In this document: positions 49,655 to 59,660 of the stretch, in pieces | How the letters are laid out: each line of letters begins with the position of its first letter | Position numbering within the stretch: the first letter of the stretch is position 1 | DNA from: a virus | Direction: 5' to 3' (one strand) | IMG/VR virus record: IMGVR_UViG_3300044259_000094 | Span: 31,734 to 95,733 of that record | Length of the DNA stretch: 64,000 bases | Position numbers and translations under genes: made by a program | Notes under the pieces: model-generated | The model's input: the letters and a program-made list of their open reading frames with translations, nothing else | What the model was told of the DNA's origin: nothing | Databases searched by the model: none

Positions 49655-49996
49655 CTAGACAAGCTCCAACAAAACCACGTCATCATCCCCCTCGACTTCT
49701 ACATACTCCGGTTCCTTTACAGGTTCTGGTGGCGTGATAACCCGGATCGCTACAGGTGTGGGTTGCAAGGTCTGCTTCATGCGACCATCCCGGTACACCT
49801 TCCCTCCATTCACGATCCAACCCTGCTTTTTTAGGATCGCCAGGCTACACATCAACGACTCCCGGGTCGTCTCATAAGGCAACCGATTCTGGAGTTGGTA
49901 GACGTCAACGTCTGACTCCCGGTCTCCTTTCGAATCCAGGTTCCCCATTACCACAACCTTCACGATGTGGCGCTGCTTACTGGTCAACGGTTTCAT
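49655..49996 (-). CDS. winged-helix DNA-binding protein (candidate late regulator)
   Basis: LTSKQRHIVKVV...TRESLMCSLAILKKQGWI pattern. Confidence 0.6.
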   Translation of the reverse strand: MKPLTSKQRHIVKVVVMGNLDSKGDRESDVDVYQLQNRLPYETTRESLMCSLAILKKQGWIVNGGKVYRDGRMKQTLQPTPVAIRVITPPEPVKEPEYVEVEGDDDVVLLELV

Positions 49997-50901
49997 AACA
50001 GATCAAGCCTCAATGGTTCATTTGGACCTTGTAGATCAAAGGCCCGGAGTGGAAGAGATTGTGGGATCGGCCGGCCCAAATCTGGGTTCGTCCAAATCCC
50101 GTAAACAGGGCTGGCGAAGACGAGCTGTTGAAGCTCCCTGAGCAGGTGTGCTGCGTCCATCGACTGGACCTTGCTGGTACCCGCGTTGAGGTTCGAACCG
50201 GTCTTCTCGCGTGCGCTGTGGCGGTAGTAGAAGTCTTGCATAGCGGTCATCACACGCTTGCGATGGGTCGGGCTGAAACTATCAAGCTCAGTCATGACCG
50301 CCTGGTGATCCGCAGGGTGCGCTTCGAACTGCGACCGCATGAACTTCAAGCCTTGCTCGTAGGCTGCAGCAGGTCGCAAATGGGCGTGCTTGAAGCCAGC
50401 CTTCACGTCGAATGGGTTGAACTTGGACATCGAGGACTGAATCTCGATGAACCGCTTACCCTCCATTCGCATCGCCAGGTTCACCATTCGATACGCAACA
50501 CCGATACCCCGGTACATTGTGTCCGTGACGATACGAGCTGCTCGCCTGAAATTCGCGTTCAGGAAGGTAGCCCGGTGTACGTTGGTGAAGTTGCTGTCTT
50601 GTCCCGGCTTGAGTTTCGGGAATACAGCGTGGCGAGGAGCCAGCAAAAGACTCACCGTCGAGAGCACGACGATGCCTACCAGGTCTCCATCGGCAGTAAC
50701 GCAGCGCCAATAACGGGGGCCAGCAGGGAGATTTTCGGACTTGTAGTGCAGGTCATGGAGTTGATCCCAGTCTTCCTTCGAACCTGGTTCAACTCGCATC
50801 CCATCCAGCAGAGAGAAACGGGGTTTAGCACCCGGGTTTCTCTCAACCACAATTTCATATTCAGGCAGGTTCGGGTTCACCCTCTTCTCCTTGGACTTCA
50901 T
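49993..50901 (-). CDS. GNAT-fold acyltransferase of the ABC-ATPase-associated phage type
   Basis: LHDLHYKS; ARIVTDTMYRGIGVA (acetyl-CoA motif A); SSMSKFNPF..KAGF. Confidence 0.8.
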   Translation of the reverse strand: MKSKEKRVNPNLPEYEIVVERNPGAKPRFSLLDGMRVEPGSKEDWDQLHDLHYKSENLPAGPRYWRCVTADGDLVGIVVLSTVSLLLAPRHAVFPKLKPGQDSNFTNVHRATFLNANFRRAARIVTDTMYRGIGVAYRMVNLAMRMEGKRFIEIQSSMSKFNPFDVKAGFKHAHLRPAAAYEQGLKFMRSQFEAHPADHQAVMTELDSFSPTHRKRVMTAMQDFYYRHSAREKTGSNLNAGTSKVQSMDAAHLLRELQQLVFASPVYGIWTNPDLGRPIPQSLPLRAFDLQGPNEPLRLDLL

Positions 50902-56304: not shown

Positions 56305-56333
56305 TTGCTAACCTTACACAGCGTCTGTAAAGT
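56305..56333 (+). promoter_or_regulatory. sigma70-like promoter of the SLOG/TerB/ncRNA operon
   Basis: TTGCTA-17-TAAAGT with A-tract upstream. Confidence 0.65.
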
Positions 56334-56370
56334 TCAATTCATCGAAACGCAGCAGCAAACGAGAGCAACG

Positions 56371-56907
56371 ATGAAAGCATATGTGGGCGCGGGATCAGGC
56401 AACACCCCTCCTGATGTGCTGGAACTGATGTTCAAGATTGCGGGTGTGATGTCTCAGAAAGGCATCACCCTACGCTGTAGCGAAAGCGGTATCGCCGACG
56501 AGACTTTCGTCAAAGGGTGCAAAGGCAGGTTCTTCACATACATTCCTCACGGGTGTATCGATGAATCGCTGGATAACCCGGATGCGAAACCCTACAAGCC
56601 AAGTGTTTGGGGTATCACCTCTGACCTTAGCCCGGGTAGTAGCGATGTCGCTTTCGCAAGGTCACTCGACCCAGGATTCCTCATGCTGTCTACAGCTGAG
56701 AAGCAATGGGAAGTGGTAGCAAACTCGCTGATCTACGGTCTTCCTGTGTTGGGTAAGCACAGTAGCCTAGCGAAAATGTTGATCTGCTGGTCTGAACCCG
56801 GCGATCACGTTGAACGGTACATCAAGAAGGCTGCGAAAGCCGGTGTACTAACCCTGAACCTTGCAATTCCGCAAGACAGGGCAAAAGTCGAGTCTTGGAC
56901 TCGCTGA
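56371..56907 (+). CDS. SLOG-superfamily (DprA/Smf-like) protein with divergent motifs
   Basis: YVGAGSGNTPPDVL...GITLRCSESGIADETF resembles YAGIGSRxTP...LRSGGAxGAD; LICWS; LNL. Confidence 0.65.
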   Translation: MKAYVGAGSGNTPPDVLELMFKIAGVMSQKGITLRCSESGIADETFVKGCKGRFFTYIPHGCIDESLDNPDAKPYKPSVWGITSDLSPGSSDVAFARSLDPGFLMLSTAEKQWEVVANSLIYGLPVLGKHSSLAKMLICWSEPGDHVERYIKKAAKAGVLTLNLAIPQDRAKVESWTR

Positions 56908-58190: not shown

Positions 58191-58388
58191 ATGACCACCT
58201 TCTCGCTGGACGAGTTTGTAGCTGAGGTTCAGAACTCACCTGCAGACTTCAAAGCGTGGTGGCTGGATCAGCGGTCAAAAGCTGCTGATCCAGAAACTTG
58301 GCCTCTGGAGTTACCAGAGAGCAATGCCGGGACGTTCTATGAGGCGTTTGTCGACTACCTCTATCACGTTCACGGTAATGAAGACTGA
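58191..58388 (+). CDS. hypothetical protein
   Basis: 65 aa directly after the previous stop. Confidence 0.7.
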   Translation: MTTFSLDEFVAEVQNSPADFKAWWLDQRSKAADPETWPLELPESNAGTFYEAFVDYLYHVHGNED

Positions 58389-58510
58389 GAAGTCTTCATT
58401 CTTGGTAAGCAGGAGAACTTGGGTTCAACTCCCTTGATTCGGACGGCCCGCCTAACAGGGCTATTAGCTTACGCTGGTTAAAGCGCCTGCTTACCAAGAA
58501 TGAAGATTTT
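58389..58510 (+). ncRNA. circularly permuted tRNA-like RNA (T arm, looped acceptor stem, D arm) closed by a 25-bp duplex
   Basis: 3'-half elements precede 5'-half elements; 58389-58413 pairs with 58486-58510. Confidence 0.8.
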
Positions 58511-58584
58511 GGGGTATCACTGCCACATATGGGAGGCAGGGTCCGGAAGGATCGACGAGGGTTAAACTCCCTCATACTCCACCA
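58511..58584 (+). ncRNA. anticodon-less tRNA-like RNA with Ala identity elements
   Basis: GGGGTAT/ATACTCC-A-CCA (G3.U70, A73); CTGCC/GGCAG D stem; GGTCC-GGAA-GGATC; GAGGG-TTAAACT-CCCTC. Confidence 0.85.
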
Positions 58585-58589
58585 GTTTT

Positions 58590-58669
58590 GAGGGTATACG
58601 CAAATTGGGAAAGCGGTCGGGTGGTGAACCCGATGATTTTAGGCGGTTCGAGTCCCCTTGCCCTCACCA
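58590..58669 (+). tRNA. aberrant tRNA-His(GTG)-like gene
   Basis: GAGGGTA/TGCCCTC-A-CCA; TCGGG-TGGTGAA-CCCGA; bulged T stem; G at position 33. Confidence 0.7.
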
Positions 58670-58672
58670 TAT

Positions 58673-58716
58673 CCAAAAAGAGTTGGCATTCTGTAAGAGA
58701 ATGCCTTATCTTTTGG
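58673..58716 (+). other. RNA hairpin (possible processing element)
   Basis: CCAAAA..GGCATTCT-GTAAG-AGAATGCC..TTTTGG. Confidence 0.55.
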
Positions 58717-58952
58717 TTGCTCTCCCTTGGTTAGAGGGTTGGGTGTGTCGTTCTGTAGCATGCCGGATAGGTGAATGTAAGTAGCGGTGACTATGCCTTT
58801 GGTTTGTGGGTGTCACTACGAAAGATCACAGAGCCTACCGGGAGACTGCTGGTGTTGTTCCCACCTCCTGCTCCACCAGTCTTACAAATCTGTGACTCCT
58901 AAAGCCCGCACTCTGACGGGAACGAACCCTCGGTACACACCGAAGCAGAGAC
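58717..58952 (+). ncRNA. structured, probably pseudoknotted RNA candidate
   Basis: Many 5-8 bp complementary segments, several crossing (see finding); ends at the terminator. Confidence 0.55.
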
Positions 58953-58977
58953 AAAAGCCCGCGAAAGCGGGCTTTTT
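58953..58977. terminator. bidirectional intrinsic terminator
   Basis: AAAAGCCCGC-GAAA-GCGGGCTTTTT. Confidence 0.92.
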
Positions 58978-59156: not shown

Positions 59157-59660
59157 TCATCGAACATCACCTGGCTCAACGAACTGCCAGGCTTCTGTAT
59201 CGAACGCGGTCACTTTACCGCCGCTACCGCAGTCCATTTCGATAGCCGAGTACACAGCCTGCACAGCGTTCTGACCGAGACGCATGGCAGTCAGAGCAAA
59301 CGGGAACCCGGAGCCGCCAGCACATGGCGCTTCACCCATCATAGGGATCAAGGTTTGCTCCAGATCGAACACCTCTCGATCCTTGGTGATGATCATCCCT
59401 TCCCAGGAATCGGGTTGAATCTCAGGGATAGTGTGTTCCGGGTCTTGCGAGAACAGATCGTTACCCTGTTCCAGCCAATTCTTGATCAGATTGACCATCG
59501 CATAGCTGCCGGCGCCCATGTACAGGAACTCGGTTTCTTTGCCGTTGAGAACACCGTTGATCAGGAACAGCTTCTTGATGGACTTGCCGGTGATAGTGCC
59601 ACCACAGCAAGATCGGCCATCGACAGCGGCGTAACGTCCATCAAATGCGAGAGTGGTCAT
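59157..59660 (-). CDS. HslV/proteasome-like Ntn-fold peptidase
   Basis: N-terminal M-TTLAFDG..AVDGR; GSG..FALTAM; AV..AIEMD..SGG. Confidence 0.8.
   Translation of the reverse strand: MTTLAFDGRYAAVDGRSCCGGTITGKSIKKLFLINGVLNGKETEFLYMGAGSYAMVNLIKNWLEQGNDLFSQDPEHTIPEIQPDSWEGMIITKDREVFDLEQTLIPMMGEAPCAGGSGFPFALTAMRLGQNAVQAVYSAIEMDCGSGGKVTAFDTEAWQFVEPGDVR

Follow-up and report, generated by a model that had tools for sequence, protein, structure and literature searches.

Transfer-messenger RNAs (tmRNAs) reduced to their tRNA-like domain, the 'CDS-less' (coding sequence-less) forms, are found in mycobacteriophage DS6A, in jakobid mitochondria and in Mallomonadaceae plastids (PMC4131195; PMC11915505). 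An inhibitory effect on tmRNA in E. coli is reported for one of these molecules, and for the DS6A tmRNA the proposal is that it titrates SmpB and so blocks trans-translation in the host (PMC4131195; PMC11915505). The tRNA mimics of YrlA and phage Y RNA-like type end in a long stem that binds Ro60, have a closed 'acceptor' hairpin and are generally not chargeable (PMC4201824; Chen et al. 2014). On any phage family of alanine tRNA mimics that lack an anticodon, the literature yielded only these tmRNAs and YrlA. Such a family is described here, starting from a 74-nucleotide (nt) RNA gene, the target, in a 64,000-nt stretch of viral DNA (the window; bases 31734-95733 of the 95.7-kb IMG/VR virus record IMGVR_UViG_3300044259_000094, which is estimated to be 85% complete). 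Judged from its sequences the family appears to be new, and its kind may be given as phage-encoded, non-decoding alanine-acceptor tRNA mimics.

An earlier note, written from the sequence of the window, had presented the target as an anticodon-less RNA with full alanine identity that resembles a stand-alone tRNA-like domain of tmRNA. Its description of the structure was accurate: every element listed is present base for base at 58511-58584 (Table 1), and the structure of lowest free energy in RNAfold is the same cloverleaf (-30.3 kcal/mol; z = -2.97; 1 of 200 shuffles was equally good), with four helices that are all perfectly paired and contain zero mismatches. The bases CA join the 5' strand of the acceptor stem to the D stem. 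The alanine identity set (G3.U70, A73, G2-C71 and G20) is complete in the sequence. At the anticodon position there is a 4-nt GGAA loop instead of a 7-nt loop with U33, an anticodon and a purine at position 37.

Alanyl-tRNA synthetase (AlaRS) reportedly charges any acceptor helix that carries G3.U70 and A73, the anticodon being irrelevant (Hou and Schimmel 1988; Francklyn and Schimmel 1989), and a synthetic alanine minihelix or microhelix with these two features is said to be sufficient (Francklyn and Schimmel 1989). The target has in common with the minihelices an acceptor/T helix with G3.U70 and A73, but it is a natural, full-size and conserved phage gene. Its likeness to tRNA-Ala (RF00005) extends to the order of the cloverleaf, the 7/5 acceptor/T branch, G1-C72, G2-C71, G3.U70, A73, the GGGA of the D loop and the encoded CCA, and the mimics are also located in phage tRNA clusters. 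Unlike tRNA-Ala, however, the mimics lack a normal 7-nt anticodon loop; U8 is unconserved, the D stem has an extra pair, there is no nucleotide 26 and position 56 is often A. The tRNA-like-domain-only tmRNAs resemble the target in being small and encoded by phages or organelles, in their G3.U70/A73/CCA acceptor and T arm, in having neither an anticodon nor a tag frame, and in their expected alanylation, whereas the mimic family forms a four-helix cloverleaf with a 5-base-pair (bp) D stem and a stacked hairpin at the anticodon position. YrlA (RF02553) is likewise non-decoding, with tRNA-type D and T arms acted on by tRNA enzymes, and a permuted module of this sort is present at 58389-58510; the target differs from it in having free tRNA-type ends and alanine identity, and no TROVE gene occurs in the record.

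Homologues of the target were found in 12 other IMG/VR viral contigs and four metagenome contigs. This family size is a lower bound, the collections having been scanned by exact patterns only. The pattern of the TTAAACT T loop led to contig L085, which carries a clear homologue with compensatory changes, and patterns of the shared D loop and D arm then led to the rest. A relaxed D-loop pattern gave no additional true members in IMG/VR, and an exact 28-mer covering the T arm and the 3' end had zero matches there. The IMG/VR pattern made from the acceptor sequence matched ordinary tRNA-Ala genes and several unrelated small RNAs of the tmRNA tRNA-like-domain type. No match was obtained among 50,697 GenBank phage records when the target or a majority-type member was compared by blastn, and the family patterns had no true match across the genomes of 185,579 prokaryote species. 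Pattern matches in L112 and L113 (bacterial metagenome-assembled genomes) and in L116 and L117 were set aside as chance matches, as they have no tRNA-like fold.

A covariance model built from 14 homologues with the target left out locates exactly 58511-58584 in the 64-kb window (75.9 bits, E 5e-20). On the family covariance model, members score 76 to 101 bits and the next matches, which are true tRNA-Ala genes, at most 39 bits; small RNAs of the tRNA-like-domain type score about 23 to 32 bits. Because of the leave-one-out score and of this gap between members and tRNA-Ala genes, the target can be regarded as a real member of a discrete RNA family that has tRNA-Ala genes as its closest kin. The existence of such a family also argues that the target is neither a one-off nor an error. 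The D arm, CTGYC-ACATAYGGGA-GRCAG, is nearly invariant and serves as the signature of the family.

Comparative analysis of 15 distinct sequences (target included; 79 columns, 83% mean identity) supported the four-helix structure, on which 97.2% of the cells of the family hold standard pairs. Compensatory changes on both sides occur at 14 of the 24 pairs, and none of 500 shuffles matched these values; when the register was slid as a control, only 42 to 55% of cells were paired. The D stem of five pairs is paired in 100% of cells, one of its pairs covarying (U-A, C-G, U.G), and four of the five T-stem pairs covary. The first three acceptor pairs, G1-C72, G2-C71 and G3.U70, are retained in 14 of the 15 sequences, and covariation is seen at 4:69 (G-C or A-U), 5:68 (four pair types) and 6:67 (two types). 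Since the G.U persists while neighbouring pairs covary, the comparison indicates that the wobble pair G3.U70 is itself under selection. A73 and CCA are each present in 14 of the 15 sequences, and the D-loop GGGA (G18-G20 and A21, as in tRNA-Ala) is invariant or nearly so. The earlier note is supported in that the RNA gene is real, carries every element of alanine identity and has no anticodon that could be used. As G3.U70 is selected across the family and there is no usable anticodon, it is a sound inference that the RNA can be alanylated but does not decode.

The arm at the anticodon position is the variable part of the molecule. Ten of the 15 members have a 19-nt arm of 7 bp with a UAACU loop, and this loop is invariant among the ten despite their divergent stems. 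The remaining arms carry GGAA on 5 bp (the target), GAAAU, CAAAAA, AGAUC or AAACU on 7 bp and are mostly shorter; stems range from 5 to 7 bp. In the alignment of the target to the leave-one-out model, nine anticodon-arm positions are replaced by the 4-nt GGAA, and the target appears from this to be a shortened-arm variant within the family. Joint conservation of G3.U70 and the tetraloop had been put forward as a check; G3.U70 is indeed kept (14 of 15), but the GGAA arm is found in the target alone. The same note had named a normal 7-nt anticodon loop in close relatives as grounds for refutation, and the longer arm of the relatives goes part of the way towards this. The majority arm can be drawn with such a loop, as a 26.44 pair, a 5-bp stem and the 7-nt loop GUAACUC, yet G32 and C38 of this loop can pair, U37 stands where a purine is usual and ARAGORN makes no call. 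The arm may be a spacer hairpin in the target and possibly has a binding role in the majority form. Another possibility is that the GUAACUC loop, with AAC as its anticodon, inserts alanine at GUU (valine) codons; the majority form would then be a phage tRNA made to mistranslate, and the target a decoding-dead derivative of it.

Standard models and finders do not recognize these genes. ARAGORN made no call on the target and called none of the family members, and no Rfam family covers the mimic RNAs. The best clan match for the target is Rfam tmRNA (RF00023), at 18.9 bits (E 1e-4) and over the two ends of the model only; no similarity to tmRNA sequence was found beyond the two ends of the target. 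A function of the tmRNA type, in which the RNA would enter stalled ribosomes with host SmpB, either as an alanine acceptor without a tag or as a titrator of SmpB, would account for the GGGG...CTCCACCA ends, G3.U70 and the tmRNA-like T arm of the target, and it fits with Rfam tmRNA being the best clan match (23.1 bits for the member in L098). A phage tmRNA with the tRNA-like domain only has a precedent, as has the inhibition of tmRNA by a molecule of this kind (PMC4131195; PMC11915505), and separate mini tRNA-like-domain RNAs with a D loop of the GAUUCGAC type occur in viral contigs L015, L042 and L052. However, the score is far under the 47-bit cut-off, and the GAC connector, offered in the earlier note as a tmRNA-like trait, is not a family feature, since GGC takes its place in 10 of the 15 sequences. 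The tRNA-like domain of tmRNA is by definition without a D stem, and SmpB takes the space of the anticodon arm; in the mimics this space is occupied by the conserved 5-bp D stem and the adjoining hairpin. Searches for an SmpB gene were negative in the phage record and in five other records that bear the family, of which two are complete genomes, although SmpB of the host could still serve. Identification of the target as a stand-alone tRNA-like domain therefore fails on the D stem, the stacked hairpin, the low tmRNA score and the fact that its nearest non-members are tRNA-Ala genes, and a tmRNA-type function is unlikely. What survives of the resemblance is in the ends, where G3.U70, A73 and CCA stand on a 7-bp acceptor next to a T arm. 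The T loop TTAAACT, singled out as atypical, is present in the target, but A56 is optional and other members have TTCAACT.

Several RNAs of 69 to 80 nt in other viral contigs, L015:4213-4284(-), L042:5038-5106(-) (= L074), L052:7703-7775(-) (= L056), L049:1106-1185(-) and L087:7323-7401(-), combine a G3.U70/ACCA acceptor and a T arm with one hairpin and a D loop that is open, as in tmRNA (for example, GATTCGAC). Those in L049 and L087 also have the TTAAACT T loop. These five are tRNA-like-domain-only tmRNA-like genes, distinct from the mimic family.

Members of the family lie co-oriented within tRNA arrays of phages, the largest with 33 genes, or are solitary after an open reading frame (ORF) with a terminator of their own (L085). 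At five loci a true tRNA-Ala(UGC) is also present, within about 10 nt of the mimic at two of them. Mimics from different phages are far more alike than a mimic and its adjacent tRNA-Ala, and for this reason the family would seem to be an old separate lineage that moves between phages and not the product of repeated local decay. The phage of the window has six tRNAs called by ARAGORN, none of which is tRNA-Ala. In favour of a decaying or neutral tRNA-Ala relic, carried as a functionless passenger cassette, the gene is optional among near-identical relatives and absent from Pseudomonas phage nickie. Moreover, the arm of the target is 5 nt under the family norm (short arms occur in only four of the 15 members, each different), and the member in L099 has a damaged 5' acceptor strand. 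Against decay stand the perfectly paired helices of the target, a stable GNRA-capped stem and no ragged deletion, the intact CCA end and A73, and the purifying selection under which the G.U pair, the D loop and the T loop stand in phages of very different kinds. A relic is very unlikely. A long perfect hairpin, GCTCGAATACCT...AGGTATTCGAGC, lies immediately before the L099 member (L099:1380-1456, in a metagenome contig) and recalls the long-stem RNA upstream of the target.

All public runs were examined as Logan contigs, a form of data that does not reveal RNA ends or levels. Two of them contain every sampled word of the stretch, and either is possibly the source sample. A 9870-nt contig from an independent freshwater metagenome (X3), with flanks more than 99% identical to the window, passes directly from the long-stem RNA to the odd tRNA that follows the target in the window (Table 1). 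Phage nickie is also free of the cassette, its long-stem RNA being followed directly by the odd tRNA, and no member was found anywhere in its genome. A diverged relative from sediment (X4) has a member with an identical 23-nt D-arm stretch, another acceptor (GGGACGT) and a different remainder. As X3 and nickie lack the target and X4 has other RNA genes at the same spot, the locus can be read as a hot spot at which genes for tRNA-like RNAs are exchanged. On window positions 58377-58714 the X4 contigs seemingly carry two tandem alanine-identity RNAs after the long-stem RNA, only contig ends being visible. The first of these, which sits before the family member, has the ends GGGGATG...CATCTCCACCA and so also has G3.U70.

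Table 1. Positions in the window of the target RNA, its parts and the features around it
Feature	Position	Strand	Description
Whole 74-nt RNA gene (target)	58511..58584	+	Short-arm member of the phage tRNA-Ala-mimic family; from fold, model score and alignment
Acceptor stem, 5' strand	58511-58517	+	GGGGTAT (G1, G2, G3); pairs with 58574-58580
D arm	58520..58539	+	CTGCC (58520-58524) - ACATATGGGA - GGCAG (58535-58539); G18 G19 G20 A21 in loop
Anticodon-position hairpin	58540..58553	+	GGTCC-GGAA-GGATC; 5 bp; GNRA tetraloop GGAA at 58545-58548; no anticodon
Connector	58554..58556	+	GAC, 3 nt; from sequence reading and alignment
T arm	58557..58573	+	GAGGG-TTAAACT-CCCTC; from family alignment and pair counts
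Acceptor stem, 3' strand, and 3' end	58574-58584	+	ATACTCC (58574-58580), U70 at 58578; A73 at 58581; CCA at 58582-58584
Presence/absence boundary	58515..58605		91 bases skipped and 14 other letters instead; X3 Logan contig, joint 58514 to 58606
Upstream long-stem RNA	58389..58510	+	122 nt; 25-bp closing stem round a permuted tRNA-like module; 3' end abuts G1 of the target
Aberrant tRNA	58590..58669	+	GTG 'anticodon', G33; ARAGORN call; Rfam tRNA 39.1 bits; 5 nt past CCA of the target
Terminator-like hairpin	58685..58705		Plus strand; downstream of the RNA train
Stronger terminator	58953-58976		
RNA train		+	End of plus-strand block: 122-nt long-stem RNA, target, aberrant tRNA, terminator-like hairpin, conserved region, strong terminator

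The nearest named phage is Pseudomonas phage nickie, with which the window shares a local order of a TerB-like gene, small ORFs, the RNA cassette and an HslV-like gene on the opposite strand. The plus-strand block begins with a gene (56305-56907) that matches the DprA-like/SLOG family (phrog_768), and the gene after the RNA cassette (59157-59660, minus strand) matches an HslV-family peptidase (phrog_1040). When the TerB-like neighbour was used as an anchor in IMG/VR, zero relatives were found. The downstream neighbour of 167 amino acids led to four loci, one of them in nickie and the other three without a tRNA call by ARAGORN, and the family model found no member at any of the four.

The upstream RNA (-59.9 kcal/mol, z -7.5) contains, in this order, a T arm (GGGTTCAACTCCC), an acceptor-like hairpin and a D arm. 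The tRNA clusters of Pseudomonas, Cronobacter, Enterobacter and Salmonella phages contain, in gaps without annotation, sequences 78 to 86% identical to its permuted module of roughly 75 nt. The stem that closes the module has another sequence in pf16 and GAP31 and still pairs, and in nickie the base of the long stem is kept while the interior is different. The architecture is like that of Y RNA (YrlA), yet neither this RNA nor the target (checked to E 10) matched Rfam YrlA (RF02553), and no Ro60 (TROVE) gene was found in the phage record. In Cronobacter phage GAP31, tRNA-Lys and the permuted module are separated by about 105 nt without annotation (L005:2384-2490), which end with a T arm and CTTCGCCCACCA, another uncalled tRNA-like RNA.

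The only Rfam tRNA match at or above the 29-bit cut-off that touches the target (58458-58581, 32.5 bits) takes its 5' half from the upstream element. This match would suit a tRNA that is split or contains an intron, with the target as one of its halves, as it joins the D-arm side of the upstream RNA to the T arm of the target. However, the two halves occur independently: the upstream module is found without the target in pf16, GAP31 and others, X3 keeps the module and lacks the target, and members of the target family are found without the module in other phages. In addition, the family model sets the 5' end at 58511 and the composite acceptor stem would have a C-C mismatch. The match was rejected on these comparative grounds as a chimeric alignment, and a split tRNA is scarcely credible.

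The aberrant tRNA downstream has a long irregular variable region, and G33 replaces U33. Its orthologue in nickie has C33 and TCG, and in the near-identical relative X3 its pair 2:71 differs in a compensatory manner. Possibly this tRNA is a further mimic that does not decode. Tight packing between the long-stem RNA, whose 3' end the target abuts, and a tRNA that begins 5 nt further on is what a processing or punctuation element would show, one whose tRNA shape serves as a handle for RNase P and for 3' trimming and so frees the neighbouring RNAs. Handles of this kind are known (mascRNA). In relatives without the target, however, the odd tRNA takes the same position, so that a handle is already there; RNase P needs none of G3.U70, A73 and G20, yet these are conserved; and elsewhere members lie in dense tRNA arrays, or alone with a terminator (L085). 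There is only a very slight chance that the target serves in this way.

Between the terminator-like hairpin and the strong terminator, 58745-58925 is 70% identical to nickie, the sole blastn match of that part of the window. In nickie the CTCCACCA motif that the window has at about 58870-58877 is not conserved, and 58670-58885 does not fold better than shuffled sequence (z -0.9).

An alanine donor for a non-ribosomal, aminoacyl-tRNA-dependent transferase (of the Fem, MprF or L/F-transferase type) would have to be kept off the ribosome, and alanine identity without decoding is, from known systems, the look to be expected of one; staphylococci have a non-proteinogenic tRNA-Gly. The transferase that had been suggested speculatively, a GNAT-fold enzyme at 49993-50901, proved to be something else: this ORF, which lies on the minus strand, matches an ABC-type ATPase family (phrog_886, E 1e-127). 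It gave no hit in Pfam, and the five other family-bearing phage records lack it. No ORF is common to the neighbourhoods of the window, L085 and L107, and an all-against-all comparison of ORFs in 17 family neighbourhoods revealed only spurious ORFs over tRNA genes as shared. A role as donor is thus also of very low probability. The five other records that bear the family, of which two are complete genomes, yielded no AlaRS gene; the record of the window's own phage was not searched for AlaRS. As no phage-encoded partner was found in the regions and families tested, the RNA would have to work with host proteins.

The explanation that we favour, with somewhat better than an even chance of being right, is a horizontally mobile phage gene for an RNA derived from tRNA-Ala, in which the acceptor end and elbow are kept and decoding is lost. 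The RNA would be transcribed at the end of the plus-strand operon within a train of tRNA-like RNAs. Cleavage by RNase P at G1 is probable given the tRNA-like acceptor/T helix and the U at -1, and the mature RNA would end in the encoded CCA. Most likely the host AlaRS charges it with alanine through G3.U70, A73, G2-C71 and G20, the first two of which are enough for the charging of a minihelix. The hairpin, closed by 5 bp and a GNRA loop, should be unable to pair with a codon, and since the tetraloop precludes selection by codon on the ribosome, the RNA is expected to act off the decoding pathway. The role assigned to it there, as a competitor or decoy for host factors that recognize the acceptor end and elbow of tRNA-Ala or tmRNA (AlaRS, EF-Tu, and acceptor-end-directed enzymes or toxins), is held weakly.

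A number of observations weigh against this explanation. The gene is dispensable, as its absence from X3 and nickie shows. The sole contig from an RNA library at the locus (X6) spans 58300-58514 and then ends, and contigs from wastewater 'RNA-Seq' cover the upstream module and the region past 58612 only. With U8 not conserved and an extra pair in the D stem, the RNA may deviate from tRNA in its tertiary structure, and A56, where it is present in the T loop, abolishes the G19-C56 pair. The search for a conserved protein partner turned up none that would point to a pathway, and the decoy role is a guess.

It is also conceivable, if rather doubtful, that phages exchange a dedicated class of alanine-charged, non-decoding tRNAs that acts on translation quality control, mistranslation by the majority form being a second twist. 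Such RNAs would, for example, be SmpB-independent, tag-less peptidyl acceptors on stalled ribosomes, or would block trans-translation in the host or defence toxins directed at acceptor ends.

Genes for these mimics are entirely overlooked by standard tRNA finders, tmRNA finders and Rfam. The family provides a natural set of variants, with four types of arm and with both A56 and C56, and near-identical relatives with and without the cassette form a natural isogenic comparison; together with this, it offers a direct test of whether G3.U70 is recognized in vivo. The usual explanations for tRNA genes in phages are the supply of codons and escape from anticodon nucleases. A tRNA that is conserved and mobile and retains only its alanine-acceptor half fits neither, and suggests that phages engage in a form of aminoacyl-tRNA mimicry without a described mechanism, for which the sole precedent in the literature, the tmRNA of DS6A, is differently built.

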